A DNA stretch of 64,000 bases from a virus (lineage: Duplodnaviria; Heunggongvirae; Uroviricota; Caudoviricetes). Where the stretch lies: the IMG/VR virus record IMGVR_UViG_3300001687_001192; one strand, written 5' to 3'. Positions 7,487 to 54,511 of this stretch are shown piece by piece; within the stretch, counting starts at the first letter, position 1; every line of letters begins with the position of its first letter. Made by a program: the position numbers and the translations under genes. The notes beneath the pieces were generated by a model. That model did not search any database. It had not been told where the DNA came from and saw only the letters and a program-made list of their open reading frames with translations.

Positions 7487-7517
7487 GAAAAAAATGCACA
7501 AAGGAGTGAAAAAAATT

Positions 7518-15657: not shown

Positions 15658-15755
15658 ATTATATGTGTTTAATTTTACCCTTGTGTATGGGGTTTTAGAA
15701 CGAAGGAGATAAAATGAAGGTTAAAAATTCTAATGGAAGGAAAGGAGAACGGGAA

Positions 15756-17693: not shown

Positions 17694-17695
17694 TA

Positions 17696-26145: not shown

Positions 26146-27399
26146 ATGGCTGGTAGTAGAAGATTTCTTAATTTTCTGTATCCTGGTGGCACTTTTAATC
26201 ATTATACGATAATTAATAGAATAATTGTGGAATTCGCCACGCAGGTGTTGGGGTGGACCCTCTATGATTCAAGTGGGTCTGGTTGGACTAGTGTTGTAGC
26301 TAGCGGGTCTTCTGCTGATACCACCTCATATCCTGATACGCTTGATATGACCGGTTCTGGCAGGTCATGGTCTGCAGGTGATGAAGACATGCTTATTACA
26401 TTAACCGGCGTATCTGGCGCAGATGCTGCAGAAGAACAGTGCAATGGTATTTATAGAATTAAGGAAGTGGTTGATTCAAACACAATTAAGGTTAATATAC
26501 AGCGTGGCGTCCATAGCGATGGCCTAATTGATGGTTACACAAATTTGAGCTGGCGTTTATTCGATCCTGAAAACTCTTCTTACAGTCCATCCGCTGCCGA
26601 TTGGGCAGTCATTAGGTCTTCTTATTCACATGCGCCGTCGGAGCCGAATTTTGATATTAGAATAGAAGTGGGCCCTAATGATAATACTTGGAAAATGTTG
26701 CCGCGATTTGAAATGGGACCATACGGAACTTGGGATAGCGGCAGTCATTCGTGGGGCGACAGCAGAAATACAGGACAACTTTTGCGGGGATCAAGCACCG
26801 CACTCGCAGCTAACGGCGTCGATTCGGTGTTTGCGTTTGGCGATAGTGATCATATATGGATGTGGTGGAACCACGGCACTACCACAACATATTGGCATTG
26901 TCTCGGGTTAGGCCAGATAATTGACCCCTTTAACCCCAACGAAGATACAAACCCAGGATCTATTTACTATGCGCATGATAGCATGACATTACCTGATCAG
27001 ATGGTCGGAATTGAGTCTGGCGGGACCAACTTTACGGACAAAGGTTATATGTTAGCCGAAGATGATGCAACTTCAATCGTTTTTTATACGATGATTCCTT
27101 CTTGTCCTCCAGTAAATCACGCGGAATCTGCGATACCAATTTGGCATGGATACCAAAGACGAATCTCGAGAAGAGGGAATGGGTATTTTAGAGCAGAAAT
27201 ATTAGCCGAGTCCATTACAGCTTCGCATATGGAAATTAGAGGGAGATTGGTTGATATGTGGGTGGGCGGGGCCTATCCGCCATTTGGGCGCCCATTTGGA
27301 AACTCATATATTCATTTGTTTAGCGGATTAAGCCATCCGTGGCATAATAGTGATGTACTTTATTTAGTGCCATATTCTTTTGATTGGCCGACTACGTAG
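26146..27399 (+). CDS. Putative virion structural protein (Gly/Ser/Trp-rich)
   Basis: 417 aa, beta-rich composition, similar architecture to next ORF; function inferred only. Confidence 0.6.
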   Translation: MAGSRRFLNFLYPGGTFNHYTIINRIIVEFATQVLGWTLYDSSGSGWTSVVASGSSADTTSYPDTLDMTGSGRSWSAGDEDMLITLTGVSGADAAEEQCNGIYRIKEVVDSNTIKVNIQRGVHSDGLIDGYTNLSWRLFDPENSSYSPSAADWAVIRSSYSHAPSEPNFDIRIEVGPNDNTWKMLPRFEMGPYGTWDSGSHSWGDSRNTGQLLRGSSTALAANGVDSVFAFGDSDHIWMWWNHGTTTTYWHCLGLGQIIDPFNPNEDTNPGSIYYAHDSMTLPDQMVGIESGGTNFTDKGYMLAEDDATSIVFYTMIPSCPPVNHAESAIPIWHGYQRRISRRGNGYFRAEILAESITASHMEIRGRLVDMWVGGAYPPFGRPFGNSYIHLFSGLSHPWHNSDVLYLVPYSFDWPTT

Positions 27400-27410
27400 G
27401 AGTGTGAGTT

Positions 27411-28643
27411 ATGGCGATACATTGGACTAGAGAACTAATACATACTGCAGGCGAGCCACGTAATGGATTTTCTTTGTGGGTTAAGCAAATTGTTATGATG
27501 ATGTACCATATCGGTGGTTTCACTAATTTTAGCGAGTCGGTCAGTGGGGGCACTTGGGATCCAACAAGCTTTACCAAAAGCGGATCAGACGGCTATTTTA
27601 CCGGCTCTGACAAACGGTTCACGGACAATGTGGCGTCGTCTTTTACGGTAACCGACACCGGGTCTTATATATTAATTAAGGATACTACCTATCCTAGAAA
27701 TTCTGGCTGGTATAAAATGACTTACGTTGATTCTAGCAATATAGATCTTGACTTTCGTAGTGGTGCAACTGAGTATCCAGACGCTTCCGGCGGCTTATCT
27801 TGGTGGACACTAGATAAACTTAGCGGTTTTCCAGCTGGAAATGGCGATTATTGCAGAATACGTGGAGATACTGGTTGGGAAATTGAATTTAAAAACTATT
27901 ATCACGTAGGTCAGTGGCAAAGAACAAATATAGACATTAGAGTGAGTATGGATGGTGATTGGTCTGGTAGCGGCAAAATTGTCGGGAGCTGGAGATATGG
28001 AACAGGCAGTACGTATGAAACCGATATTTCTGCGGAACAAGTGCGCTATATGATTGTTGATACAGATGCAAGTACAATAATATTTTGGCAAGAATTTAGT
28101 GTGGATGGTGGCAATATTGGCTTCGCTCATGTGCCTGTAATACCTTATGAATCGATTCCACCCAGAGACAACACTGAAAAATATGCTATGGCTGGGTCAG
28201 GATATGGCCCAACGGTTATTGGTACCAATCTAATTTCCATTACTTGGGCTCAGAGCGGTAATCGCTATTGGGGAGATGGTGTTCGCCACTGGAACGAACA
28301 AAATGGAGGTAACGATCGTGAATTGTGGCCGATAGATTATTCAAGATGGGCTAGTGCACAAGGACTAATTGGATGGACCGGCAGAGAGATTAATGCCCGA
28401 AGTGGTAGATGGGATGTGTTAAATGGCATACCAATGTGGGCAGATATTAGTAACTCTAATAATGAACATACGCCTTTCGCTTCTATGGGCGAGATTAACA
28501 ATCTAATGTTTACTATACCAGGGTGGTCTGTTGCCGTATCTCCGCGCGCCGCGCTTGATATAGATTCTGCCGATGGTTATGCTTTTCATATTAGTTATGG
28601 CATTGGTGTGATCTGGCCGCTCAACATTACACCGCAGTATTAA
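27411..28643 (+). CDS. Putative virion structural protein, possible paralogue of ORF 26146
   Basis: 410 aa; shared layout (SG.W, K...Y.RN.G.Y.h..V, C-terminal H...G....W). Confidence 0.6.
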   Translation: MAIHWTRELIHTAGEPRNGFSLWVKQIVMMMYHIGGFTNFSESVSGGTWDPTSFTKSGSDGYFTGSDKRFTDNVASSFTVTDTGSYILIKDTTYPRNSGWYKMTYVDSSNIDLDFRSGATEYPDASGGLSWWTLDKLSGFPAGNGDYCRIRGDTGWEIEFKNYYHVGQWQRTNIDIRVSMDGDWSGSGKIVGSWRYGTGSTYETDISAEQVRYMIVDTDASTIIFWQEFSVDGGNIGFAHVPVIPYESIPPRDNTEKYAMAGSGYGPTVIGTNLISITWAQSGNRYWGDGVRHWNEQNGGNDRELWPIDYSRWASAQGLIGWTGREINARSGRWDVLNGIPMWADISNSNNEHTPFASMGEINNLMFTIPGWSVAVSPRAALDIDSADGYAFHISYGIGVIWPLNITPQY

Positions 28644-28649
28644 ATTATT

Positions 28650-29978
28650 ATGGCATCGTTTTCGGCTAATATAACTACAGAACAACTAGAAGACCCCAAG
28701 CTGGTGGCGGTCCACGAATACCAAGGATCGAATCAGGCAGCTTTGTGGCGAAACTCAGATTTTGGGTGGGATTTATTTGATCCACAACCTTCTTGGCGTA
28801 CGGATTCTCAAGCCCAGGCTGTGTGGAGCGATGGATATGGGCGAATCGTAGTCCATGACTCTATTTCAACTAACCGTTTTATGCATTATGACGGATACTC
28901 CTGGTCAAATGTGTTAGGATTTCTACCGGACGCTTGGGTATGTGAAGCTTTGGGTGGCATGAGTATGTCAGAATTGTGGGCTGGCGGTGATGGTTATGTG
29001 GGATTTTATGATGGCTATTCGTGGACGGAAGCGCTAGGGCCTTTAGATGAACTGGTTCCAGTATACAGCATATGGTCCAAACGCTCTGAAATGATTACCA
29101 AAACGTGGGTAGTTGGCGGGTCCGCTGGTAATGAGGGCGTATATTACTACGATGGCTATTCATGGACTAATTTCTATTCAGATATAGAGCTAGTTGACGA
29201 ATATGTTGGTGTTCCGATGGCAGTTTGGGGCAGTTACTTAGCAGATGATGTTTGGGTTGCCTTTGATCTTTGTGATAATCCTACCGTAAGTGGCCGAGTG
29301 GCTCATTATAATGGTGTAAGTTGGTCTATTATAGGTGGCGTGTTAGACGAGGGTCAACAAGTGTTGTGGGGCTTAACTTTTACTGCCAACGAATTATGGT
29401 CGGCAGGAGATGACAGCGCCGGTATCGCTCCTATCGTAGTTGGCTGGAATGGTTCAACCTGGGACAATAAACTAACTGGCGATTATGTAGCACGTCGTAT
29501 GCTCGGGCTTCAATCAGGACTAAGTAACGGCGTATATCTTGCTACTGGTACCGGTGCTACCTCTAATGGCGCGGTTTACAGACGATGGGATCGCAGCGGG
29601 TTAGACGGGGAACATGTATGGCTTTCAGATCAAGTTATACCTCGGCAGTGGCGTGATTTGGCGGTTCTAGAAGATGCGCCAGTACAACCGTATTTTTATA
29701 TGGAAATAGAGGAGGGGTATGGTTTAGGATATGAGACAGCTTTCGACGGTTATTTCTTGCCGCCATTTGAAAATTCTACCGTTACGTTTAGCGATGCTGA
29801 CGGCTGGCAAGGTTACGATATTGAAATCATAAAAGATTCTTATTGGGATCTGGGAAGAATCACTATGGATATAACCATTGATGCGTACAACAACCCAGTC
29901 AATTTAGAGCCAGAGCCTGGGTCTTTTGATCGAAGCAGAGACTCTGTGGTTAGATTTCGTTTAAGAAAAACGCCTTAG
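28650..29978 (+). CDS. Repeat (beta-propeller-like) protein with YDGYSW repeats
   Basis: Repeats HYDGYSWS, FYDGYSWT, YYDGYSWT, HYNGVSWS, GWNGSTWD separated by xxWG/WA motifs. Confidence 0.7.
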   Translation: MASFSANITTEQLEDPKLVAVHEYQGSNQAALWRNSDFGWDLFDPQPSWRTDSQAQAVWSDGYGRIVVHDSISTNRFMHYDGYSWSNVLGFLPDAWVCEALGGMSMSELWAGGDGYVGFYDGYSWTEALGPLDELVPVYSIWSKRSEMITKTWVVGGSAGNEGVYYYDGYSWTNFYSDIELVDEYVGVPMAVWGSYLADDVWVAFDLCDNPTVSGRVAHYNGVSWSIIGGVLDEGQQVLWGLTFTANELWSAGDDSAGIAPIVVGWNGSTWDNKLTGDYVARRMLGLQSGLSNGVYLATGTGATSNGAVYRRWDRSGLDGEHVWLSDQVIPRQWRDLAVLEDAPVQPYFYMEIEEGYGLGYETAFDGYFLPPFENSTVTFSDADGWQGYDIEIIKDSYWDLGRITMDITIDAYNNPVNLEPEPGSFDRSRDSVVRFRLRKTP

Positions 29979-30077
29979 GAGATTTTGTAGAGCCAGAAGC
30001 TGGCTCATATGACCAGCCAAAAGGTTCGGTGATCAAATTTCGGTTAAGAAGTGTTTAATTGTGGAGTGCCTATATAA

Positions 30078-32546
30078 ATGGTAACTTACTTATCAGATAA
30101 ATTATTTTTGGATGGATACGCAACAAATGACGTATCATTTGGTTCCGACAACTCTCCTTGTCAAGGGTGGAGTGATAGGCCGTTATGTCTTGCTGGCAAA
30201 ACCATGGTCGGTGGTAGTCCAACCAAAGATACTTCACGAGGCGAGTTGGATGTCTGGAACTGGAATTCGGCTCTTGATACCTGGGTACGCAAGCATCACA
30301 TTACCCACCCAGATGATGCTCCAAATACTTTGTTCGGGTTTCATGTCGCTATGGACAAGACAATGCTGGTGCCGCTCGTCCTCGTCGTCGGGTGTTTCGG
30401 ATACGCGACACAGACAGGTCGCGTCTACGTCTTTGAACGTGCCGACATCAACTCCGACTTCAGCTTGGTCACCAAGTTGGAGGCCAGCGACAAAGGGGCG
30501 AACGACCAATTCGGGTGGCGAGTCGCAGTAGACGAGATCAACGGTATCATTGCTGTGACCGCCAGGGGCTGGGACGATCCAACGTACAGCAATGCCGGGA
30601 AGATCTACCTGTTCGAAAAGGACGGTGACTCGTGGCCTGGTAGTGTGGTTACCCCCGGCACCGAGGATGCCTCCGTTGTTCTGCCTGGTAGTGAGTTGCT
30701 CGGTGGTAACTACTATCTTGGCATCGGCCTAGCACTCCGCAATGGGCACTTGCTCGCAACTGGTGGGGGGCAAGCGTACAAGAAGGTCAACTACTGGTTA
30801 AGGTCGTCTAAGACCAGCTGGCCACATCAGCAAACGCTTGACTACAGCACCGATGTTGGATTGACAGACGTCGATATGGATGCCACCGCCACCTATGCTG
30901 TGACCGGCGTTGATGACAGCGATAGGATTCGTTTATTGAAGCGTACCGGATCCGGGTCCTCAACGTGGGAAGAGAAGGACGTCGAGACCCGGGACGGCGG
31001 CGGTGGGGCGGGTTGGTTCGGCGTGATCGTCAAGTTGGCTCCAGATGGTACAAGCGTGGCAACGTCCGCAGGTTTTTACGATGACGCTTACAACGAGCAG
31101 GGCCGAGCTTGGATTATCCCGATTGTTTCCGATGCTTTTGATACAGGCAATGAGGAGATTTTTGCAGCAGCGGATGCAGAAGACTATCATTATTTTGGCA
31201 GTTCTCTTGATTGGAATGGCCACCACATAGCAATTGGCGCGTGCGGCGATGATGAAGCTGCCGAGAATGCTGGAGCGTTATATTATGATCTGGCAGGCGA
31301 AGATTATCCAGGAGGCGGTTTTTTGGATAATCAAGATCCACCGCACGATTCTTACGGGGCTCTGCCGTCTACGAACATATCTACGGACATATTAGGTCTG
31401 TACACGGGTATAAATCTCAACACAATAGATGCATATGTTAACGGAGCCTTAGCATTTACCGGTCCGTCAACCTTTATATCGCCATACAACGGACCCTCAT
31501 CTTCAATTACTGCCACCACTGTGGACGGCTATGATGGTTATAACATAGTATTCGACAATACAACCGATTTCAGTATAGGCTCGGCCGTTACTACTAGAAT
31601 CGTATGTCAAGATAACTATGGAGCTTCTATAGATGAAAGTTGGACATTTCATATAGCACAAACCGTACTTTCATTGGTGCACGGCCCTTATGAAATTACC
31701 TTTGATATTACTTTTTCTGGCGAAGTATCCTCTAGTGCGCTAAATCCTGCTTACTATTTGTTTGATAATGGAATGTATGCCAGATTAGTAGAGCACATGG
31801 AAAACGATACGTATAGGCTGTGGACAGAACTTTATGAGGGTGATTCAACATTTAGCCTAACTGTTTCGCCCAATCTAAAAGACAGTTACGGCGGTTCTAT
31901 ATATACGGATCCCATAACTACCACACCTTTTTATTCTTCTGCCGATATGAGTAATTATGATGGAAAAGTTAGATCGTGGCGTCAGAGCAATTTGATAAGC
32001 GCAGATAGTCAGAGAATTTATTTAGCTGGCACAAGAGGAATAGATGTTTTTCGTAAAGTTACTGAAGTAAATCCAGTAAGATGGGGTCAAATATTAGACG
32101 AATACGGTATTAACGCCATGTTTGTGGCCAATTACACTAGCGACTTAGTGATTACTGATACAGTGCCGCCATACGTAACAGATCAGGATCCGCCGGCCTC
32201 GGGCACTTCTTACACTTCAGATCCTATATTGTTTACGGTTACAGACGTTTCTTCAGCGGTGGAAATCCCTTCCACCACCGTATATGTCAACGATGTCATA
32301 GCTTTTAATGGTGGCGACGGCGGCTGGGATAATGGATATACTGGCACTATTACAGTGGAGTTTAGGAGACTTGATTTTGTTATAAACCCACCTGTACCAT
32401 TCACTCCAGAGTCCACTGTAAGAGTTAGAGTGGTGGCATCAGATTTGCTCGGAAATCTTTTAGACATCACATATTCATTCACGGTTACTTCCACTACCGG
32501 GTTTGGGTTTTCAATATACGGCACGTCGTCATTTGGAGGGGTATAA
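30078..32546 (+). CDS. FG-GAP repeat beta-propeller plus Ig-like modules; putative tail/receptor-binding protein
   Basis: LFGFHVA, DQFGWRVA, WFGVIV, YFGSSLD..IAIGA..DD...NAGA; two DNQDP/DQDP-type Ig-like modules. Confidence 0.75.
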   Translation: MVTYLSDKLFLDGYATNDVSFGSDNSPCQGWSDRPLCLAGKTMVGGSPTKDTSRGELDVWNWNSALDTWVRKHHITHPDDAPNTLFGFHVAMDKTMLVPLVLVVGCFGYATQTGRVYVFERADINSDFSLVTKLEASDKGANDQFGWRVAVDEINGIIAVTARGWDDPTYSNAGKIYLFEKDGDSWPGSVVTPGTEDASVVLPGSELLGGNYYLGIGLALRNGHLLATGGGQAYKKVNYWLRSSKTSWPHQQTLDYSTDVGLTDVDMDATATYAVTGVDDSDRIRLLKRTGSGSSTWEEKDVETRDGGGGAGWFGVIVKLAPDGTSVATSAGFYDDAYNEQGRAWIIPIVSDAFDTGNEEIFAAADAEDYHYFGSSLDWNGHHIAIGACGDDEAAENAGALYYDLAGEDYPGGGFLDNQDPPHDSYGALPSTNISTDILGLYTGINLNTIDAYVNGALAFTGPSTFISPYNGPSSSITATTVDGYDGYNIVFDNTTDFSIGSAVTTRIVCQDNYGASIDESWTFHIAQTVLSLVHGPYEITFDITFSGEVSSSALNPAYYLFDNGMYARLVEHMENDTYRLWTELYEGDSTFSLTVSPNLKDSYGGSIYTDPITTTPFYSSADMSNYDGKVRSWRQSNLISADSQRIYLAGTRGIDVFRKVTEVNPVRWGQILDEYGINAMFVANYTSDLVITDTVPPYVTDQDPPASGTSYTSDPILFTVTDVSSAVEIPSTTVYVNDVIAFNGGDGGWDNGYTGTITVEFRRLDFVINPPVPFTPESTVRVRVVASDLLGNLLDITYSFTVTSTTGFGFSIYGTSSFGGV

Positions 32547-32576
32547 AACTATAAGGAGATGAGTTTTTAAAAAAAC

Positions 32577-34157
32577 ATGCCCACTTGGTATTTTGAAACA
32601 GGCAACCCGCCTTTCTATGATAATCAAAGTCCTCAAGATGGCTACTCTAATGTGGACAAGTTTACACTTGTTTCCATAGATGTTGCAGACGCAGAATCTT
32701 ACGTAGATTTATCAACGCTTGATGCGTATGTCAACGGTGCTGATGCTTATAGAATTGGCGTTGGGTTTGTAGCTCCTTATGATGGATATTTTTCCAGCAT
32801 TACACCTACGATTCTAGATGGTTATGATGGATATACTATTACCTTTGATAGAACTGGATATTATCCTCCGCTATCTTACGTTACTTTTCGCATTGTGGTT
32901 GATGATTACGGCGGCAATACGCTGGACGAGTCATGGACTTTTCAAATTGAGACGTCATTAGATCCGTTTGTTGATAATGAGAGTCCTGCTAGAAATGCCA
33001 CTGGCGTGTCTCAGTCGTCACTCATTTCCTTTGACGTGCTGGATCCAGAGGGCGAGATGGGCTCGGATACTATAAATATATATGTAGAAGGAAATCTTGC
33101 GTACGGTGGCGGTACATTTATATCGCCGTATGACGGTGTTAGCTCTTATGTTTCCTTTACGAGTCAGCCCGGTGGAGATGGCTATCATGTTGTTATTGAT
33201 AAAACCTCTGCGCTCGATGCTATAGTACCGGTCAGAGTTATAGCTAGCGACCCAACCGGCGGCACCCTAGACGACTCCTGGGGTTTTACAACACTTTTTG
33301 AAAATATCAATGTCATCTATTACTCTGATGGGTATGGCATAAAGAAAATATATATTGCCAATATAGCTGGAGAAAGTCAGAGTCAAGCCGTTACGATTTT
33401 GGATTATCCGCTGATACCATCAAATAACGTAATCTCGCTTTCTGGTAATTTCATATCCAGCAATTCTTATCTGGTTTCTTGCTATGACGACTATGGAGGT
33501 GTAATAGATGCTTATGGTATGGCTGACGATGCGTACGGAGTATCTGTCATACGTAATGAGGCCGGTGTCACACAGTATTTAGATGGGTACAGCACCAATG
33601 ACGGTGCTATAACTGATAAAGGAATTTTATATGTAATAAATAGAAATCTTAACAGAATAGAAGTCTACTATGGGGCTCATTTCAGAAGCGGCAGTAGAGG
33701 TCCAGACTTTATTTACAATACCGCGTCTTCACCGTCTTTGTTTCCAGGAGAAATTCTATGTATGCATGTAGAAGATGGGAATTCAGTTGTGCTAAGCGGT
33801 GGTGCTAGACTATTTGTTGGGACATCTCTGGGTATGACTCGCATTGATACATATGATCAGCAAACGGTAGACGGATATAGCGACGGATATGATGGGTATG
33901 GTCTTGCCACAACATTTGGCATAATAGGAAGCGGCGCCGAATATGAATCAATTGGTGGAACAATTCCGAGGGTTACGGCCGTGTCCTCAGACGAATTGTC
34001 GACTATTTTCGTCGTAACGAATGATGGATATGGTGATGGCGGTTTAACACAAATCGCTATTTCTGGAAATCGCAGATTGGCATTTTTGACGGAGGCCACC
34101 GGTTTTGTGCCGTCAAATGATATAAGAGATATTTTTGGTAAGAATTTTAGTAATTAA
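32577..34157 (+). CDS. Ig-like module protein, DGY-rich; putative virion protein
   Basis: Two modules (PPFYDNQSP...DESWTF; DPFVDNESP...DDSWGF) homologous to those in ORF 30078. Confidence 0.7.
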   Translation: MPTWYFETGNPPFYDNQSPQDGYSNVDKFTLVSIDVADAESYVDLSTLDAYVNGADAYRIGVGFVAPYDGYFSSITPTILDGYDGYTITFDRTGYYPPLSYVTFRIVVDDYGGNTLDESWTFQIETSLDPFVDNESPARNATGVSQSSLISFDVLDPEGEMGSDTINIYVEGNLAYGGGTFISPYDGVSSYVSFTSQPGGDGYHVVIDKTSALDAIVPVRVIASDPTGGTLDDSWGFTTLFENINVIYYSDGYGIKKIYIANIAGESQSQAVTILDYPLIPSNNVISLSGNFISSNSYLVSCYDDYGGVIDAYGMADDAYGVSVIRNEAGVTQYLDGYSTNDGAITDKGILYVINRNLNRIEVYYGAHFRSGSRGPDFIYNTASSPSLFPGEILCMHVEDGNSVVLSGGARLFVGTSLGMTRIDTYDQQTVDGYSDGYDGYGLATTFGIIGSGAEYESIGGTIPRVTAVSSDELSTIFVVTNDGYGDGGLTQIAISGNRRLAFLTEATGFVPSNDIRDIFGKNFSN

Positions 34158-39454: not shown

Positions 39455-39663
39455 CAAAAGAAAAAATATTAAAATTCGAAGACGAAAGTTTTTTACGAGT
39501 AACAATAGAAGAAAACGGGGCAACAACTATTACTTTGCAGGCTAAGCATCTGGGAAGCAATATTAAAACCACATCGGCTACTATAAATTTAAAGCCGGAT
39601 GAAGTTATTGAGTTGGTTGCCTGGATGGGTCAGGAGTTAACGGATGAATGCTCAAATGGTTGA
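39451..39663 (+). CDS. Hypothetical protein
   Basis: 70-aa ORF in operon. Confidence 0.65.
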   Translation: MTKEKILKFEDESFLRVTIEENGATTITLQAKHLGSNIKTTSATINLKPDEVIELVAWMGQELTDECSNG

Positions 39664-40363
39664 ACGTGATTATTTGCCCATGTTGAGGCAGCTTGAAGAA
39701 AAAATCAAGAAAAATGTCCCAACATATGAGCTACGTTTTAAAAATGAAAGCACACTTATGAAAATAATGAGTAAAATTCTTTTTTTTAACAAGGGCTTTA
39801 TGACGAAAGTTAAAACTGTGCTTGGTACGAAAGTATATTGGACAAGTAGGGAAGATTATGACCGAAACCCGCGCGAGACTTTTGGATCATTGGCACACGA
39901 ATTCGTACATGTTATGGACTATAAAAGAAACCCAGTGAAATTTGCACTGGGTTATCTTTTTCCGCAAATTCTAGCTACGCCCGCACTATTGTTTGTGTTG
40001 TTGTCTCCCATATTGATTCCTTTGATTGTCTTCGGCGTGGTACCTGCTTGTGTACTGTGGGTGTTGCTTACAGCATTGTTCCTGGCACCAATACCATCTC
40101 TTGGTAGAAAATGGGCAGAAATGAGGGGCTACGGAATGAACATTAAACTTATGGTGTGGCTCTATGGCTTGTTTCCTAAACATTATAGAGAATGGTATGT
40201 CAGGCATTTTACGGGGCCAACATATTATTATATGTGGCCTTTCAAAAGAAGCATAGAAGAAGAAATAGATAAGTGGTCAGATCCATTTAATTTAGATTGT
40301 CTTGATGATACAAACCCAGCATACAGGGAAGTATATGACTTGTTGTTTCAACTAAGAGCATGA
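39644..40363 (+). CDS. Membrane protein with HExxH zinc-metallopeptidase motif
   Basis: LAHEFVH, long hydrophobic hairpin, downstream E in RKWAEMRGY. Confidence 0.7.
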   Translation: MNAQMVERDYLPMLRQLEEKIKKNVPTYELRFKNESTLMKIMSKILFFNKGFMTKVKTVLGTKVYWTSREDYDRNPRETFGSLAHEFVHVMDYKRNPVKFALGYLFPQILATPALLFVLLSPILIPLIVFGVVPACVLWVLLTALFLAPIPSLGRKWAEMRGYGMNIKLMVWLYGLFPKHYREWYVRHFTGPTYYYMWPFKRSIEEEIDKWSDPFNLDCLDDTNPAYREVYDLLFQLRA

Positions 40364-41481
40364 AAATATTCGATTTAATTATCATAGGCTCAGGACCTGC
40401 CGGGACTGCTGCCGCCAAGGTTGTTTCATCAAAAGGCATGTCAGTTCTTTTAATAGAACGTGGGAAAGATTTAAATAGGCGAAGAGACCTAACTTGCGGG
40501 TGGTTTGGGCACGGTTTGTACGCCATGAATCGACTGGAATTGGAAGACCCAGTACTTCAAAATGCTAAAGCTATCAGAGAAGCGTTCAAAATAGTACAAA
40601 ACGTTTCCCTAGAGAGACCTACAGTCCTAAAAGCCAAGGGTTTTGGAGAGGGGAAATATTGTGTTCTTCCCGATGGTTTTGGCAGAGAGTTAGCGACATA
40701 TTTTTTTAATGCCATTTCGAGAAATGGAACCATCGCATTTAACACAGATGCCGAGAAAATTACTCGCGATGGCAACGTATTCTACATAAAGACAAACAGA
40801 GGTACATATGCTGGGTCCAGGTGTTTAATAACCACGGGCAAAAACTCCCTGGAATGGTTAGAAAAAATATGTGTCCAATTCGGCATCGAGCCAGTTGAGC
40901 AGCCGGTGAGAATTGGCGTAAGAGTTGAAGTTCCAACGTTCAGGATGCGCAAAGTAATATCTGAGATTGGAGATATAAAATTAGATTGCGGTGAGGCAAG
41001 TACAGACGACGCTCGTCTCAATGCTTTCGTTGGTGAGTGGGAAGACTCTAATTTACTGTCTGCTTTCGGGCATTGCATGCCGGGTAAAAAATCTGAAAGG
41101 ACCAATTTTATGGTTGGGCTTGACTCGGATGAAGAAGGTATCAGGGACGCACGGATTGCTAATGTATTATCTAATGATAAAATCCGCCCAGAGAGAGTTA
41201 GTGAATATGTAGAAGGAAGATCGGCACTTGAACACATAAATACATTTCGAATGCTTAGAGAAGCGTTCAGAAATTTAGAGAAAGTGTTTCCTGCATTTAT
41301 GTCATACGCAATAATGTATGCGCCGGAGATACGATTAAGGGGCATACTGGATGTTGATCAATATATGAAAACCAAGGTGCCAGGCCTATATGGGGCCGGA
41401 GAGTGCACTTCTAGAGTAAGCTCTTTAATAGGAGCCATAGCGTCTGGCTTAATTGTCGGGCGAACTATATTAAAGGAGTAG
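40360..41481 (+). CDS. FAD-dependent oxidoreductase (HI0933/COG2509-like)
   Basis: IIIGSGPAG, IERG, IGVRVEVP, YAPEI, TKVPGLYGAGE. Confidence 0.8.
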   Translation: MKIFDLIIIGSGPAGTAAAKVVSSKGMSVLLIERGKDLNRRRDLTCGWFGHGLYAMNRLELEDPVLQNAKAIREAFKIVQNVSLERPTVLKAKGFGEGKYCVLPDGFGRELATYFFNAISRNGTIAFNTDAEKITRDGNVFYIKTNRGTYAGSRCLITTGKNSLEWLEKICVQFGIEPVEQPVRIGVRVEVPTFRMRKVISEIGDIKLDCGEASTDDARLNAFVGEWEDSNLLSAFGHCMPGKKSERTNFMVGLDSDEEGIRDARIANVLSNDKIRPERVSEYVEGRSALEHINTFRMLREAFRNLEKVFPAFMSYAIMYAPEIRLRGILDVDQYMKTKVPGLYGAGECTSRVSSLIGAIASGLIVGRTILKE

Positions 41482-43493: not shown

Positions 43494-43907
43494 TTGAAAA
43501 AAATCTTTCCGGCGCACAAGCCAAAACAATTGGAGTTTATTCAGCAGCGACATACCAAGGATTGTGGTGTGGCTTGCGCAGCTATGCTCGCAGATCGAAT
43601 GTATAAAGAGATAGAAGCTATTTTCCATATTTTAGAGAAATCTACAAGAAGCATATATCCCGATGATGTATTTGAAGTGTTGGATGAAATTGGCTATGAC
43701 TATGATGAGGTGGCTCATCTGCCAAAAAGAGGCAGAGCGCTCGTAGCCATAGAATGGAAAAATGAAGGTTTTACTGGCCATTATGTCGTTTGGGATAGTT
43801 CAAGGGGTCAATTTTTAGATCCCTTGCACGGTGTAATGGGCAAAAGAGAGATGCTGAAGTATGCTTCTATTGATTATATATGGAGAATAATAAGGAGAAA
43901 GAAGTGA
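43494..43907 (+). CDS. Peptidase C39-like cysteine peptidase
   Basis: QQRHTKDCGVACAAM, GHYVVWD, FLDP. Confidence 0.8.
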   Translation: MKKIFPAHKPKQLEFIQQRHTKDCGVACAAMLADRMYKEIEAIFHILEKSTRSIYPDDVFEVLDEIGYDYDEVAHLPKRGRALVAIEWKNEGFTGHYVVWDSSRGQFLDPLHGVMGKREMLKYASIDYIWRIIRRKK

Positions 43908-48027: not shown

Positions 48028-50685
48028 ATGGTTTTTTACATCTCTAAAAGAGCTGGGGAAGTTGTTGAATTCCCTGAGAAAACACAACAAATGCATCGTT
48101 TCAGGACGGCTCCAGATACTAGTATTCACAAGTATTTTCACCCAGAAAATTTTACAACATGGGATGACTACCTGACAGACGACCCTAAAATGGATCCTGC
48201 TGAATATATACATACATGGAAGGTATTTCATTTTGCAGATGGCACTGTAGCTGCGTCTCTTAACGTGCGCGGCGACCAAAAAACGTTCTCTTTGTATCTG
48301 CAATGGCCTGATTTCTTTGGGAAAGCTTTTCCGGCTGCCCAGACTAGAGATGATACTTATATCATAAATTTTGAAAATCAGCCGATTTACATGCTCCCTG
48401 TTCTGTTAAAGAGTTTAAACCCTCTCCTGCGGGCTGTCAGCGCCTATGAGGCATATGTGGAAGAGGATGATGAGTATGAAGCGGACGATGATACAGCAAA
48501 GTCAGATCTTACAGATCTCAGAAAATATTTCCCCGTTTCTACTTTTGCTACCATGGACGCCGATAAACCAGAATGGTTTATTAACAAATATGAAGCGAAT
48601 GAAATCAAAGCACGTTTGCGTTTCGAAGAAGGAGACGTTACGTTTATCGTTGCAAGAGCTATTTTCTCAGATATATTCGGTTTTCGACTCGCATGGCCGC
48701 AATCTTTTCGAATGGGCGGTTTTAAAGAAAATGAATCACAAAGTAGTGTGTTTCATGGCACTAGCCTTAAAAAAGAAGAGTTCGAAGAACTCCTGCCGCA
48801 AATTTACGATTTGATTGGTGAATTTACATTGAAAAAAGAGCTGGAACGCCCACAGCGTCCAGTTCAACGACTAGAATCGCTTTTACCCAAGGAATTGTTT
48901 AGAGGATGGGATTTTGTAGAGTATTATAGCCACGTGTTGAATGCTTCTATTTCCCGCCCTACCTTTCACTTATTAATAACATATGAACCAAAAATGTTAA
49001 GCGTGCCTGGCTTTTATGAAATCCGAGTCGGGCCGGCAGCACATAATATCTGGACAGAAACAGAAGATGAGTTCCCTTCAGAAAAATTGCTCAAATTAAT
49101 AAAAACAAAAGGCGAAGAAAATCAGCCGGTAAAACTACAAAATCAGCATTTTCCAATATCTAAGCGCGCTAAATCAAAATATATCGAAAAAAAAGAAGAA
49201 GAATCCGGCAATATAACATATATCTACTCGGAAAAACACATCAAAGAAAGAAATAAGAAAAAAGCTAAGAAAATCTTGGAACTAGAAAAATCTATCAAAG
49301 ATGTGAGAAAACAGGTCCAAAAAGATATCTCATCCAAAGAACCTGTGCTCGAAGATATAGCCGCCGTCGTTGGACTGATCGATGATACATACGAAAGAGT
49401 GGGAAACCCAAGCTCCGCTAAAGAAGATCACCACGGCGTTACAACCTGGAGAAAGAAACACGTCACGTTCTCCAAAGGAAAAGCTACTATTAAATATGTA
49501 GGAAAATCCGGCGTCAAACAAGAAAAAATTGTGGAATCAAACCCCCTCGTCGCTGCTCTTAAAAGAGCTATAAAAGATAAAAAACCAAATGATGAAATAT
49601 TTCCTGATATTAATGGCAGACTGGTAAACCTTTACCTTAAACCTTATAATATAACTGCCAAAGATATAAGAGGATTCCACGCCAACGAAGAGATGAAAAA
49701 AGCTCTTAAATCAAATAGGAATGGAACTCTACCAAAAGATCAAAAGGAGAAAGAGAAGAAGCTTAAAGAAGAGTTCAAAGAAGCTTTAGAAATAGCCGCA
49801 AAAAAAGTAGGACACGAGCCCGCTACCCTTAAAAACCAATATCTTATCCCATCTATAGAAGAACATTATCTAACTTCCGGCAAAATTAAAGTGCAAGCAC
49901 AACTTAAACTTGCCCAAGAATTAGACCTCAGAAAATTGTTCCCACCGGCAACATTTGGAAGTATGGGAGGAGATAAAATCTGGAAATTTGTGATTTTTGA
50001 GCCAAATGCGGTAGTTACCAACTTATTTACGAAACATGGCTCAATGGAGTTTTATGTAAAGCTCTCAACCCACGAGAATAAATATATTCTACATATTGAT
50101 TGGCCCAAACATTACGATATTAAAGGATTAAAAACGCTACCACTAAAACCGGATGAGTCCAAAATAGGACAGAGGCTCTTCGGACCACAAGGCTGGGTCC
50201 AAATTGATGACTATATAACACAAGATCAATTGTTGAACCTTGTCCCAGAAATCCATGAACTTATTGGATCTTTAACGCTTGAAACAGAAAAAGAGCTAGA
50301 ACATGTCGAAAATATGATCGAAAGAGTATTTCCTCATAATGTTTTCGAAGGTTGGAGCTTAATATATGATAAACTAGCACATAGATATACATTGTCAGGA
50401 AATACTTTTTCTCCAACATGCCACTTTTCTATATCAGAATTTCCAAGCCGCGATGCGTTCTATGTCTCGATAAGTTGGCCAAGAGATTTGGGAAGACTCC
50501 TAGTACCCACTAGTAGATCAAAACATGAGTTTACATCTGGTGGATATATGTCGTTCGACGACGAAGATAAATTAGATAAGCTTAAGAAAGTGATCAAATA
50601 CCTTGGAGATTTGGCTAAAGCAAATACCCTAGATCTACCAGAACCAGAACCGCTTCAACAGGAGAACCCTGAACCAGAACAATGA
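48028..50685 (+). CDS. Multidomain protein: type IB DNA topoisomerase core embedded between copies of an uncharacterised repeated domain
   Basis: Topo IB residues ERVGN (R), YVGKSGV (K), KDIRGFHAN (R), GHEPATLKNQY (H and Tyr 9 apart) at about 49170-49900; ISKRA at the start and just before the topo core. Confidence 0.85.
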   Translation: MVFYISKRAGEVVEFPEKTQQMHRFRTAPDTSIHKYFHPENFTTWDDYLTDDPKMDPAEYIHTWKVFHFADGTVAASLNVRGDQKTFSLYLQWPDFFGKAFPAAQTRDDTYIINFENQPIYMLPVLLKSLNPLLRAVSAYEAYVEEDDEYEADDDTAKSDLTDLRKYFPVSTFATMDADKPEWFINKYEANEIKARLRFEEGDVTFIVARAIFSDIFGFRLAWPQSFRMGGFKENESQSSVFHGTSLKKEEFEELLPQIYDLIGEFTLKKELERPQRPVQRLESLLPKELFRGWDFVEYYSHVLNASISRPTFHLLITYEPKMLSVPGFYEIRVGPAAHNIWTETEDEFPSEKLLKLIKTKGEENQPVKLQNQHFPISKRAKSKYIEKKEEESGNITYIYSEKHIKERNKKKAKKILELEKSIKDVRKQVQKDISSKEPVLEDIAAVVGLIDDTYERVGNPSSAKEDHHGVTTWRKKHVTFSKGKATIKYVGKSGVKQEKIVESNPLVAALKRAIKDKKPNDEIFPDINGRLVNLYLKPYNITAKDIRGFHANEEMKKALKSNRNGTLPKDQKEKEKKLKEEFKEALEIAAKKVGHEPATLKNQYLIPSIEEHYLTSGKIKVQAQLKLAQELDLRKLFPPATFGSMGGDKIWKFVIFEPNAVVTNLFTKHGSMEFYVKLSTHENKYILHIDWPKHYDIKGLKTLPLKPDESKIGQRLFGPQGWVQIDDYITQDQLLNLVPEIHELIGSLTLETEKELEHVENMIERVFPHNVFEGWSLIYDKLAHRYTLSGNTFSPTCHFSISEFPSRDAFYVSISWPRDLGRLLVPTSRSKHEFTSGGYMSFDDEDKLDKLKKVIKYLGDLAKANTLDLPEPEPLQQENPEPEQ

Positions 50686-51623
50686 TTAAATATATCTCGC
50701 AAAAATTGTCCATACCAGAAAGATATCTGAAAACTCTATCCCAACAACAATTAAAGAATATCAAGATCCTAGTGGACCTGAATAAACTAAAAGAGGCTAG
50801 AGACCTATATGTCAAATATCAGATCCAAAACTACCGACAGAAAAAAGCCATGTCTAAACGAGCAATAGAAGTTGTTAATGTTACTCGTAAAATGCCAGAA
50901 GAAGTCGAAGAACAAGAAAAAGAAATGGAAGAATGGTCTCAACAAAAAGGCTTCGACCTAAGAGAATTGTTCCCAAAAGAAGCATTCGTTATGCCTCAAT
51001 GGGAATTTGCAGTTTTTAATACATACCAAGTATGGGCAGATACCATCGGAGGCCTTAGCCCATCTAAAGATCCAGAATACAATATACATAAAAGAATCGA
51101 ATTTCTGGCGGAAGCTACATCGCCGTCCCGACAACCATACCCTAAAAATGCTACGTTTATGATATATATGAGCTTTCCCAAAATAGCTAATATGGAAAGT
51201 AGTGTGTTCGAAATAGAAAAAGGATACGCAGGAATAGAATTTGTCCGCATCGAAGACCTTAATTTAGAACAATTGAAAAAACTGGCGCCCTATATATTGA
51301 ATTTCATTAATAAAGCTAGCTCTCGTGTTCTTGCAGTAAAAGCATATAAGGATTTCCCGCTGTCTAAACGAGCAGGAGAAATAATACCCTTCCCAACAAA
51401 AGAAACCGAAACCATACAATCCGAACCCGCTCAAATTCTGCCCCTACCAAAAATTAAACAGAAAAAACTCAAAGGTTTCATGGATCTAACTATCGATTAC
51501 CTGAAATCTATTATAGATAAATACCAGAGCGGAGAAATGTCAGCAGCAGAATTCGCTAGCAGATTGACGTACCTCGCCGCCGAAACCCAAGAACATATGT
51601 TTGATGAACCTATAAAAACATGA
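50682..51623 (+). CDS. Protein with one copy of the repeated domain bounded by two SKRA motifs
   Basis: MSKRA...DLRELFPKEAF...LSKRAGEIIPFP. Confidence 0.75.
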   Translation: MIKYISQKLSIPERYLKTLSQQQLKNIKILVDLNKLKEARDLYVKYQIQNYRQKKAMSKRAIEVVNVTRKMPEEVEEQEKEMEEWSQQKGFDLRELFPKEAFVMPQWEFAVFNTYQVWADTIGGLSPSKDPEYNIHKRIEFLAEATSPSRQPYPKNATFMIYMSFPKIANMESSVFEIEKGYAGIEFVRIEDLNLEQLKKLAPYILNFINKASSRVLAVKAYKDFPLSKRAGEIIPFPTKETETIQSEPAQILPLPKIKQKKLKGFMDLTIDYLKSIIDKYQSGEMSAAEFASRLTYLAAETQEHMFDEPIKT

Positions 51624-53209
51624 GATTATCTAAACGAGACTTCTACCTCTCAAAACGAGCGGCAGACAACATGGATCTAACTCAAATACTACCTAAACAA
51701 ATATTCGGCGGAATGGGTGGAGCTGGAGCAGCAATCCCCTGGACAATACTACAATATACGCCAAAATCAATAGCAGCTTATCTAAATACTACACAACCAT
51801 CAAACTCGCCAATAACAGAAACCAGAAAAATATTCTTTAAAACAGAATTATATCAAAATGCCTTCATAGTTGTCATCTCATGGCCTCCAAAATATAAAAT
51901 AGATACAAACCTGGAAGTAAAGTACAAAATAGAAGACAATGATGAAGATTACTCAGATTTTCTAGAGGAATACCAAGACGAAGTACTATATGTGTCCCAA
52001 ACAGTTACAAAAGAAGAACTAATGGCCCTAAAAGATGAAATAGCATATATATTGGGACAACTTAATCATCAACTAAATCAAGAACTTGAGGAGTTTCAGC
52101 CACCAAGCGTTGTTGAAAGAATTTTCCCCAGAAGCTTGTTTTCAGGATGGGATTTCCTGGAATTACATGAAGATGAAGGGTTTACAACTATACACGCCGA
52201 AGCATTTTTCAATAGCATTAAAAGTATTGATGTTAGCTTGGTCATACAAGAAAAATTGAACGACGAAATAGGTTTCTATATTCACCATAAAAACGATTCC
52301 GTAGAATACGATATCTCATTAGATGATGAAAACAAACTAAACGAGCTAAAACAATGGATTAAAGAAATAGGAGAAGAAAACCAACGAAGCAAAGTGGCTC
52401 CCATTACACACCTCTCAAAACGAGCACAACAAGATGTTAACCTTTTTCAAATATTTCCTAAAGATAAGTTCCCTAATTGGATAGAATCTCGGATCTCTAA
52501 GCCAGATAATCTCTATAGACAACTGCCCTTGCCACCAGGAATAAATGACGCCGGATTCCGAGCTGAACTAATACCAGACCCAACAAAAGATATCCATGAT
52601 TACGATATCTTCCAAGAAGGTATGTACGAAGAAGAATACCAAGAAGCAATGAATACCTTTAAACCACCAAAAACACACGCGGAAGTGTCCCTGTACTACG
52701 ACCCAACCATTAGTTCGTACGAAGAAAAAGATTTCATAAAAATTACAAAACCAGAAGAAAATTGGGAAAGTAAATGGAAAGAATTCAAAGAAATCGTAAC
52801 TATAGAAGAATTACCAGCACTGGCTAACAAAATTATGCCACTAATAGAACACCTGTCAGAAATATACTACACCATGCAAGATAAATTCGAAGAATCCCTT
52901 CCAGTAGATTCGCCATACAGAATATTGCCTCCGCAAATATTCCCAGGATGGAAAACACACATAACACCAAATGAAAAAATGCTCGTCGCCGGCATGGAAA
53001 CTAAAAAACGATTCCAAATCATCCAAACAAGATTGACTATAGAAAATGACCAAGCAACACTAGAACTACTCTGGCCTGAAGAATTCCTCCATAGAGCAGG
53101 ACTCAAACAAACAAAAATAACCGCGCCAATAAATAATATCCCAAACCTACAACGTATAGTAGATACTATCAAATTTATAGGACAACAAAAATTGAAAGGA
53201 AATATATAA
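51620..53209 (+). CDS. Protein with four copies of the repeated domain and SKRA motifs
   Basis: MRLSKRDFYLSKRA; DLTQILPKQIFGGMGG; ERIFPRSLFSGWDF; LSKRAQQDVNLFQIFPKDKFPNW; YRILPPQIFPGW. Confidence 0.78.
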   Translation: MRLSKRDFYLSKRAADNMDLTQILPKQIFGGMGGAGAAIPWTILQYTPKSIAAYLNTTQPSNSPITETRKIFFKTELYQNAFIVVISWPPKYKIDTNLEVKYKIEDNDEDYSDFLEEYQDEVLYVSQTVTKEELMALKDEIAYILGQLNHQLNQELEEFQPPSVVERIFPRSLFSGWDFLELHEDEGFTTIHAEAFFNSIKSIDVSLVIQEKLNDEIGFYIHHKNDSVEYDISLDDENKLNELKQWIKEIGEENQRSKVAPITHLSKRAQQDVNLFQIFPKDKFPNWIESRISKPDNLYRQLPLPPGINDAGFRAELIPDPTKDIHDYDIFQEGMYEEEYQEAMNTFKPPKTHAEVSLYYDPTISSYEEKDFIKITKPEENWESKWKEFKEIVTIEELPALANKIMPLIEHLSEIYYTMQDKFEESLPVDSPYRILPPQIFPGWKTHITPNEKMLVAGMETKKRFQIIQTRLTIENDQATLELLWPEEFLHRAGLKQTKITAPINNIPNLQRIVDTIKFIGQQKLKGNI

Positions 53210-54103: not shown

Positions 54104-54511
54104 ATGGCGAGCAACAACGAGAACGGCGAGAAGAGGGTCCCCGTCATGATCAACGCGACGGTGGCACTCGAGGGGTCGAAGGCTTTCTTCGCGGGGATGG
54201 ATACCCTCCCCAAGGACTTCGAACAGTTGGACGAGAAGGGCCAGGAGCGGGCGTTGACCGAGGCCGACAAGGTCGGCCAGAAGAGGAAGGCCGCGACCCA
54301 GAAGAAGATGGACGAGTTGGAGGCGAAGGGCCAGCAGTTCGTGCTGACCATCAACATCAACGGCCAGCTCGTCAGCGGCGCCGTCGACTGGAATTCGGAG
54401 AAGACCGGTCTCCGGGCCAGGATCAACCTCGGCCGCACGACCGCCAAGCAGGCGGTGGCCAAGGCGACCGCCAAGAAGAACAACAACCTCCGCACCTTCC
54501 TGGGTCTCTAG
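54104..54511 (+). CDS. Hypothetical protein with strongly G/C-ending codons
   Basis: AAGGAG RBS; 135 aa. Confidence 0.8.
   Translation: MASNNENGEKRVPVMINATVALEGSKAFFAGMDTLPKDFEQLDEKGQERALTEADKVGQKRKAATQKKMDELEAKGQQFVLTININGQLVSGAVDWNSEKTGLRARINLGRTTAKQAVAKATAKKNNNLRTFLGL

Follow-up and report, generated by a model that had tools for sequence, protein, structure and literature searches.

A conserved SKRA peptide at module borders of huge-phage proteins, a probable address or cutting signal

Background

In phage T4 a capsid-targeting sequence, found on IPI-III and Alt, addresses proteins to the prohead and is cut by gp21, and in phiKZ, 201phi2-1 and SPN3US head and inner-body proteins are cut by a gp175-type protease. 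In both T4 and phiKZ the head protease cuts capsid and scaffold proteins at the same motif as the cargo. The C39 peptidases, which remove leaders of another kind, classically cut after Gly-Gly. Here we have analyzed a short peptide, SKRA preceded by L, I or M (hereafter the tag), which recurs in three adjacent genes of a 64,000-nucleotide stretch of phage DNA, IMG/VR record IMGVR_UViG_3300001687_001192, referred to below as the window. The window belongs to a 460,921-bp contig of an uncultured phage (ENA ERZ27279932), and its genes are also found on a Logan contig of 49.6 kb. The three open reading frames (ORFs) are called A (48028-50685), B (50682-51623) and C (51620-53209); like all genes of the window they are on the + strand.

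A second group of described proteins is relevant here. The polyvalent proteins were established bioinformatically, contain embedded peptidases, and are predicted to release their domains by proteolysis and to be delivered with the DNA (Iyer, Burroughs, Anand, de Souza and Aravind 2017, PMC5512222). The comparison presented below strongly supports the view that SKRA functions as a signal at the borders of modules and is neither a product of chance nor part of a fold, because it is conserved in distant relatives, because gene fission, fusion and module loss occur at it, and because it lies in linkers outside Pfam domains.

The tag in the window

A six-frame translation of the window contains six copies of SKRA, and all six lie inside A, B or C. 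From the residue composition of these proteins (1,727 residues together) 0.02 copies would be expected; among 20,000 shuffles the maximum was two and six were never reached. No other 4-mer occurs more than twice in the three proteins. ISKRA stands at the N-terminus of A (48040-48054, amino acids (aa) 5-9, context MVFYISKRAGEVVEFP) and again at 49156-49170 (aa 377-381, context HFPISKRAKSKYIEKK), immediately before a type IB topoisomerase core and 23 residues upstream of its Pfam match. In B, MSKRA (50850-50864, aa 57-61) and LSKRA (51360-51374, aa 227-231, context DFPLSKRAGEIIPFP) stand on the two sides of a single module. The N-terminus of C is a double tag, LSKRD-FY-LSKRA, in which the variant LSKRD (51626-51640, aa 3-7) is followed by LSKRA (51647-51661, aa 10-14), and a further LSKRA (52412-52426, aa 265-269) occupies the linker between its units 1 and 2. 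All seven positions reported by a sequence-only reading of the window proved exact, and its placement of the copies at protein starts and domain junctions holds for the N-termini of A and C, the topoisomerase border, the B module and the C linker alike. Two junctions of A, at aa ~155 (..DDTAKSDLTDL..) and aa ~620 (..QLKLAQELDL..), lack the tag and show possible remnants only.

Codons differ between the copies, as had also been noticed from the sequence (TCT or TCA; AAA or AAG; AGA, CGC or CGA; GCT, GCA or GCG), though five of the seven share the nucleotides TC[TA]AAACGAG, whose CGA is little used for Arg (13% in the window genes). Recent duplication could account for these common nucleotides, as could microhomology used in exchanging modules. 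Translation starting internally at the codon for the hydrophobic residue was ruled out, since most copies use CTC, CTA, CTT or TTA.

Conservation of the tag

Conservation of the tag extends to at least 11 related huge-phage loci. The comparison set consisted of the window and 11 related loci with GC contents of 30-50%, about 124,000 residues of six-frame ORF segments. L-numbers below denote such loci from related huge phages, G001-G004 the records of relatives, and P-numbers remote homologue proteins. The set contains 41 copies of SKRA, every one of them on the coding strand of a tagged locus and 40 preceded by L, I or M. Conservation extends upstream, with L (20 copies) or I (19 copies) at position -1, P at -2 (18/41) and F at -3 (23/41), and many internal copies carry an additional upstream extension, KKAS-x-[D/N]-F. 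The position-wise information is high at -3, -2, -1 and through SKRA, whose Ser, Lys and Arg are invariant, and is at background directly after the Ala; such a drop is what non-prime-side recognition by a protease, or a leader, typically produces. Serine is encoded by AGT in two of the relatives' copies and by TCN in all others. This synonymous variation, including the switch between TCN and AGY, argues for selection on the peptide.

When the topoisomerase-core alignment was used as query, five IMG/VR contigs of 25 to 442 kb were retrieved, whose tagged ORFs range in length from 1,013 residues to more than 2,789. The tag separates SET, topoisomerase IB, CCA-adding enzyme plus HD, LigT 2H phosphoesterase, DSP-type phosphatase (PTPase), LigD 3'-phosphoesterase (LigD-PE), ferritin-like, ASCH and HExxH domains as well as ATP-dependent ligase/PrimPol/DJ-1 blocks; the three-domain CCA enzyme is not split by it. 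Several of these domains share a chain in the relatives, as in SET with topoisomerase and CCA/HD (L011), topoisomerase with LigT and PTPase (L010), ASCH with HExxH and topoisomerase (L008), and ligase with PrimPol, DJ-1 and LigD-PE (L010/L019). The homologues carry MKLSKRA at the N-terminus, ASFLISKRA twice in P0005, and DFPLSKRA and DFSLSKRA around the topoisomerase core of P0011; the topoisomerase gene of L006 has three copies and P0006 has three in tandem at its N-terminus. At 6900-8369 of L009 (IMGVR_UViG_3300034152_000949), in an ORF of more than 2,789 aa, an intein carrying a LAGLIDADG endonuclease interrupts the LigD 3'-phosphoesterase domain directly after SKRA.

Genes are also split, fused and shortened at the tag. 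The topoisomerase core is a stand-alone protein with an N-terminal tag in L003, L006 and L010; in the window, L008, L011 and L012 it lies inside a longer chain and is preceded by a tag. The last 85 residues of B, from the LSKRA at 51360, correspond to a separate 84-aa gene in L004 which starts MKLSKRS (45% identity; equal to B aa 227-309). P0003, the orthologue of C, has its N-terminal double tag joined straight to unit 2 (59% identity over C aa 264-529) and lacks unit 1, which is therefore present or absent between two copies of the tag; the A-, B- and C-like genes of the relative that encodes P0003 measure 918, 148 and 285 aa. At the junction of the topoisomerase with the C-terminal unit of A, one of the two that lack the tag in the window, L003 and L006 have DF[SP]LSKRA. 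The tag has decayed at a few junctions, namely the two in A and in L007 (LSIRA/LSIRE). Copies can thus be lost, and those that persist must be constrained.

Structure of the tagged proteins

The topoisomerase is the only recognisable enzyme in A, B and C. Its catalytic core (A aa 404-603, 49237-49836) matches PF01028 with 104 bits against a cut-off of 23.7 and aligns to residues 62-281 of variola TopIB. The catalytic R, K, R, H and Y match variola R130, K167, R223, H265 and Y274, and four phage homologues keep all five without change; the catalytic Tyr is A aa 605 (49840-49842), in TLKNQY. Residues ~268-274 of PDB 2h7f_X read S-I-S-K-R-A-Y, identical to the tag apart from the Tyr, where the phage equivalent (49825-49842) is T-L-K-N-Q-Y; the resemblance is probably a coincidence.

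The remainder of the three proteins is built from a repeated unit of about 240 residues, consisting of two similar modules of about 120 residues. Module a has the pattern DLRKxFPxxxF...WP...EEL..L..I..LIG.L and module b the pattern ERhFPxxhFxGW...WP...DDE.KL..L..IK.hGE. A (885 aa) contains a single module and two units, five module copies in all: behind its N-terminal tag come the single module (approximately aa 30-150, 48115-48477), a paralogue of the repeated modules, a two-module unit with no tag in front (aa ~159-375, 48502-49152), the second tag, the topoisomerase core, a C-terminal two-module unit (aa ~627-870, 49906-50637) fused to the core with a possible remnant, LKLAQE, in place of a tag, and an acidic tail. 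B (313 aa) has an N-terminal segment, a tag, one module (aa ~90-225, 50949-51356), a second tag and the 85-residue C-terminal domain that is a gene of its own in L004 (51360-51620). In C (529 aa) the double tag is followed by unit 1 (51662-52405), made of two alpha+beta modules, the internal tag and unit 2 (52427-53206), which is 59% identical to P0003 aa 9-285. It had been proposed that an active topoisomerase is released from A. All five catalytic residues are present; the core is fused to the C-terminal unit, and with the tag lost at aa ~620 it would stay attached to that unit.

An AlphaFold2 (AF2) model of C aa 1-262, made from a 12-row family alignment, reached a predicted local distance difference test (pLDDT) of 78 and a predicted TM-score of 0.73. 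In the model each module starts with short helical turns containing FP..F, continues with an antiparallel sheet of 4-5 strands and ends in a long helix. Foldseek found nothing in the PDB at E<=0.001 for this alpha+beta unit, and the best VIA-align scores (Z 7.4 for Mediator Med17C, 6.5 for TriTu immunity, 6.4 for frataxin and 6.3 for PsiB) are all in the noise range of that tool; in the ESM Atlas the TM-score by query was at most 0.41. When 1.84 billion cluster representatives were searched with a profile of the unit, only 11 proteins matched, one of them spuriously. No close relative was found for C by a word-indexed search, for A or C among IMG/VR proteins, or in GenBank phages by blastn or tblastn. 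To judge from these searches, the repeated unit is confined to a small phage clade.

The tag behaves as a free linear peptide. In the model of C, aa 1-11 have pLDDT below 50 and are disordered, and for the tag at aa 10-14 no more than a short, low-confidence helical turn is predicted. Unit 1 closes with a helix that reaches aa 259; the internal tag occupies aa 265-269 and unit 2 begins at aa 275 (NLFQIFP). Between the tag and the domain behind it lie from one residue (topoisomerase core) up to about 35 (B aa 61-95; P0006, P0008 and P0011). These variable spacers and the placement of the tag before unrelated domains rule it out as an element of a domain fold, and together with its position in linkers they identify it as a free peptide. 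The possibility that it lies inside folded domains, which would have spoken against a signal, was checked directly: no copy falls within any Pfam match.

Distribution of the tag within genomes

A DNA pattern for [L/I/M/F]-S-K-R-A was scanned over the records G001-G004. In G001, a complete genome of 442 kb, it matched 10 times on the coding strand and twice on the opposite strand, against 2 and 2 for controls. The in-frame copies located lie in two loci only, the topoisomerase locus and a second block at 389-395 kb, in which a pattern with AGY serine adds one more copy. The second block follows the head genes: TerL, portal and one 422-aa gene without a match come first, and after them a giant ATP-ligase/DJ-1 protein, proteins of LigD-PE/LigT and ferritin-like type and a phosphatase, the majority of which carry the tag. 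The 422-aa protein was considered as a possible head protease, but neither Pfam nor PHROG gave a match for it and the Atlas yielded nothing usable. In G002, TerL, portal and one gene are followed by a tagged giant of about 2,900 aa, extending over L019 and L010, and the topoisomerase polyprotein lies about 3.6 kb past the giant and about 14 kb after the portal. The G002 portal itself (L019:4138-8343) has 1,402 aa, about 350 more than that of G001, and internal PHROG matches to an endonuclease and to the thymidylate-synthase family, which suggests that it holds an inserted element or intein.

In G001, G003, G004 and the window the topoisomerase locus lies instead in a syntenic block of Tmk, endolysin, ThyX, a transmembrane HExxH protein and FAD oxidoreductase. 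Since the locus in the window stands outside the head block, a role of its products as head cargo rests on the relatives and on the shared tag.

Candidate proteases

If the tag is cut, the enzyme could be a C39-like peptidase of the window, an HExxH domain of the relatives, or a head protease that was not recognised here, although for each of these the link to the tag is one that we infer. The first is a papain-fold cysteine peptidase of 137 aa (43494-43907, + strand) with the motifs DCGVAC...GHYVVWD...DPLHG. Its Pfam score for C39 is 21.4 bits, just under the cut-off of 22, and its L003 orthologue (60% identical) scores 31.3 bits; Q18, C24, H96 and D109 are invariant in four orthologues. The gene is present in L003 and in the four relatives' records with 47-60% identity, as compared with 20-31% for the repeated units of the tagged proteins. 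It lies 2-5 kb upstream of the topoisomerase polyprotein in L003, G001, G003 and G004 and about 190 kb away in G002. The copy of G004/L012 has in-frame stops (one TAG and two TAA), which mark it either as a pseudogene or as a case of recoding. A complex prediction for the peptidase with tag-centred 41-mers scored 0.00, which gives no verdict and counts neither for nor against binding.

The second candidate, a domain with the invariant pattern HExxHxxQ...PHxLRDxE, occurs in or beside the tagged polyproteins of G001, G003, G004, L004 and L006; in G002 a copy lies about 190 kb from the topoisomerase locus, and the L012 protein has an N-terminal tag of its own. Pfam, including its MPTase models, does not recognise the domain. 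The AF2 model of the L012 protein is poor (pLDDT 57, with the tag disordered), and a fold search with it returned helical hairpins only, the Z of 7.8 for a cyanophage A4 pre-ejectosome chain not being significant.

Possible functions of the tag

Taken as a whole, the sequence comparisons make the tag very probably an address and/or a cutting signal. Stand-alone proteins with an N-terminal tag, and tandem copies, indicate that it is more than a domain separator and is itself recognised as an address or docking signal. That the chains are meant to separate at it is suggested by its retention at nearly every internal border, by the end of conservation after the Ala and by the interchange of fused and split forms. 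We consider it an even chance that these functions are combined, in an address and cleavage tag of polyvalent virion-cargo proteins. Such a tag would follow the same logic as the T4 capsid-targeting sequence, with a different sequence, and would agree with the concept of polyvalent proteins (PMC5512222). The sequence [F/hydrophobic]-[P/x]-[L/I]-S-K-R-A would then mark the start of each independent module in one huge-phage clade and would be recognised by a common handler, most likely during head assembly. The chain would next be cut at or just after the tag, possibly behind the Arg or the Ala, as the sharp loss of conservation after the Ala suggests, and the modules would be separate polypeptides in the virion or released from it. 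From the window proteins this would yield the topoisomerase core with its attached unit, several non-catalytic alpha+beta units and the 85-residue domain. We infer cleavage, packaging, the handler, the protease and the scissile bond from the patterns described above.

The sequence-only reading had called SKRA a maturation-protease site or packaging signal, on the model of T4 gp21 and phiKZ gp175. A functional signal at module borders is borne out by the comparison, and packaging draws support from context, the portal-adjacent polyproteins of G001 and G002. The analogy finds no support in its details: the motif is unlike LxE or S/A/G-x-E, and in G001 in-frame copies were seen in the polyprotein loci only.

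A number of observations weigh against the combined address and cleavage tag. To judge by the in-frame copies located in G001, the strict tag is evidently absent from capsid and scaffold proteins, although the capsid gene was not located: the Pfam capsid models PF05065 and PF07068 matched nothing in the relatives, the Gp23 result being weak because its control matched nowhere. Relaxed variants of the tag are not enriched in portal-region ORFs. Prohead proteases were sought with the Pfam models S77 and S78, which matched neither in G001 nor in G003; the S77 control matched no control genome, and the S77 negative is accordingly weak. The 64-kb window has neither portal nor terminase, and the neighbours of A, B and C are Tmk, ThyX, FAD oxidoreductase, zinc-ribbon and tRNA genes, not head genes. 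The window also lacks the HExxH domain of the polyproteins, and the tag, unlike classical C39 substrates, has no Gly-Gly in it or beside it. In stand-alone proteins it lies at the N-terminus, 2-8 residues from the Met, and tandem N-terminal copies occur; both fit docking without cleavage. A more elaborate form of the reading, in which a seven-residue zip code Phi-P-[L/I]-S-K-R-A loads an exchangeable kit for DNA/RNA repair and binding into the capsid and is cut by a non-canonical C39-like or HExxH protease instead of the head-maturation protease, with the DNA of the tag serving as a module-swap joint, seems to us unlikely.

The same genomic setting would suit processing in the cytoplasm with no packaging, in which the C39-like and/or HExxH enzyme cuts the chains in the cell and releases equimolar DNA/RNA-repair enzymes and accessory modules. 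The window locus stands among metabolic or early-type genes, the C39-like gene is close upstream of the topoisomerase polyprotein in L003, G001, G003 and G004, and in five of the loci and records named above the HExxH domain is embedded in tagged polyproteins or adjacent to them. CCA-adding enzyme, LigT, LigD-PE and PTPase moreover resemble a kit for tRNA and DNA end repair, and a tRNA array adjoins the locus. Such processing leaves unexplained the stand-alone N-terminal tags, the tandem copies and the portal-adjacent tagged polyproteins of G001 and G002, and C39 enzymes normally require Gly-Gly. We regard it as improbable.

Those stand-alone and tandem tags (MKLSKRA, just two residues past the Met; the double tag of C; the three copies of P0006) would find a ready explanation in a docking tag that is never cut. 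Comparable to the cargo-loading peptides of encapsulins, it would attach to a repeated receptor (capsid interior, scaffold, portal or DNA, for example), with several copies providing avidity. Loss of the tag at A aa ~155 and ~620 and in L007 without apparent harm fits this reading, and a ferritin-like domain is among the tagged cargo. One copy per chain would suffice for loading, however, yet nearly every border keeps its copies across distant relatives; conservation stops after the Ala as abruptly as at a scissile site; and genes are joined and divided precisely at the tag, which shows that each module works as a polypeptide of its own. For these reasons an uncleaved tag appears a shade more doubtful still than cytoplasmic processing.

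That the tag is a passive relic of head-to-tail gene fusion, or a microhomology joint for recombination with no present function in the protein, we hold to be very improbable. The nucleotides shared by five of the seven window copies despite the minor codon CGA, and module insertions and deletions bounded by two copies, speak in its favour. A relic, on the other hand, would decay, as is seen at a few junctions, and internal copies are conserved as well as N-terminal ones among phages with 20-30% unit identity and 30-50% GC, with codons varying freely up to a switch of serine codon family. Least credible of all is a modification site, with the Ser phosphorylated or otherwise modified, or a mimic of the S-K-x-x-Y active-site strand of topoisomerase IB, since, for all the invariance of Ser, Lys and Arg, the presence of a PrkA-type kinase/protease operon with DUF444 and SpoVR in the window and the SISKRAY of the poxvirus active site, no Tyr ever follows the tag (the likeness to the active site is taken as a coincidence), many non-topoisomerase domains are preceded by it, the phage enzyme itself has TLKNQY, and nothing ties PrkA to the locus.

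Returning to the combined address and cleavage tag, it predicts exactly where mature products begin and end, among them a minimal type IB topoisomerase attached to a carrier unit. A sequence rule for finding cargo proteins in uncultured huge phages would follow from it, two candidate proteases can be named, and if the tag is a true address label it could be used for loading foreign proteins into phage heads.

Gene content of the window

Besides the genes discussed so far, the window encodes a PhuZ-like tubulin (weak match, 7494-8963), helicases, DnaB, a complete PrkA/DUF444 (YeaH)/SpoVR operon (15714-20297), RNR, PhoH, five large proteins without a family match, Tmk, an amidase-type endolysin, ThyX, a membrane HExxH protein, an FAD oxidoreductase and numerous small zinc-ribbon genes. 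Both the tubulin and the operon are phage-encoded. The five large proteins (410-822 aa) form a block at 26146-34157 with a higher GC of 0.42-0.48. None of them matches PHROG, FG-GAP repeats are present in one, and the block may encode structural proteins. A 239-aa HEFVH protein (39644-40363) is followed by the FAD/pyridine-nucleotide oxidoreductase (40360-41481), an order kept in L003, L011 and L012; the L003 homologue of the HEFVH protein has a hydrophobic stretch that probably spans the membrane.

The zinc-ribbon genes precede A, B and C, which are chained by ATGA overlaps (A-B and B-C) and followed by a GC-rich array of tRNA and tRNA-like genes. Between C and this array lies a 135-aa protein (MASNNENGEKR..., 54104-54511) with no family match, found with 46% identity at the same place in L004. 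An N-terminal leader, M-[K/R]-h-h-N, is common on small proteins of the window (4862-47962) and is also found on small genes beside the tagged genes of relatives (L004:2476-2955, L006:440-1390, L016:8751-11311); it has only 'MKL' in common with MKLSKRA.

Comparison with described systems

No account of the motif turned up in the literature that could be searched, a full-text query for 'LSKRA' included, and papers on polyvalent proteins and jumbo phages do not mention it. The topoisomerase core of A shares the catalytic pentad of the poxvirus and bacterial type IB enzymes (PDB 2h7f, 1a41 and 2f4q). Unlike the poxvirus enzyme it has no counterpart of the first ~60 N-terminal residues, stands between tag-delimited modules and has TLKNQY in place of SKRAY.

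The tag resembles the double-glycine leaders of C39 peptidase domains in being short, conserved and N-terminal, in the lack of constraint on what follows it, and in having a C39-like gene nearby. It differs from them in that it lacks Gly-Gly and is also internal, and in that the peptidase is a free 137-aa protein, not a domain of an ABC transporter. With the T4 and phiKZ systems the locus has in common a short N-terminal or internal peptide shared by unrelated proteins, and families of paralogous non-catalytic proteins. The peptides themselves differ, hydrophobic-S-K-R-A in the one case and L/I-x-E or S/A/G-x-E in the other, and there is no conserved Glu in the tag. Further differences, of the kind already counted against head cargo, are that the strict tag of G001 was seen in polyprotein loci only and that the locus of the window lies outside a head module.

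The polyvalent proteins (PMC5512222) offer a parallel in architecture: unrelated enzymatic or binding domains are strung together in a mosaic that is quickly reshuffled, with a peptidase embedded or adjacent, a part that the candidate HExxH domain may play in the relatives. Several unrelated domains per chain are found in the relatives, and the window has topoisomerase IB plus module copies; linkage to head genes is seen in G001 and G002 and not in the window. The sets of domains are different, being MPTase, ParB, MTase and ART in the polyvalent proteins, and topoisomerase IB, LigD ligase/PrimPol/PE, LigT, CCA-adding, PTPase, DJ-1, ferritin-like and SET domains and the new alpha+beta unit in the tagged ones. 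The polyvalent proteins of large phages have so far been a bioinformatic concept without a defined processing code, and PMC5512222 mentions no delimiter peptide conserved among them. What would be new here is such a delimiter for proteins of the polyvalent or virion-cargo type, a conserved handle that is easily mutated.

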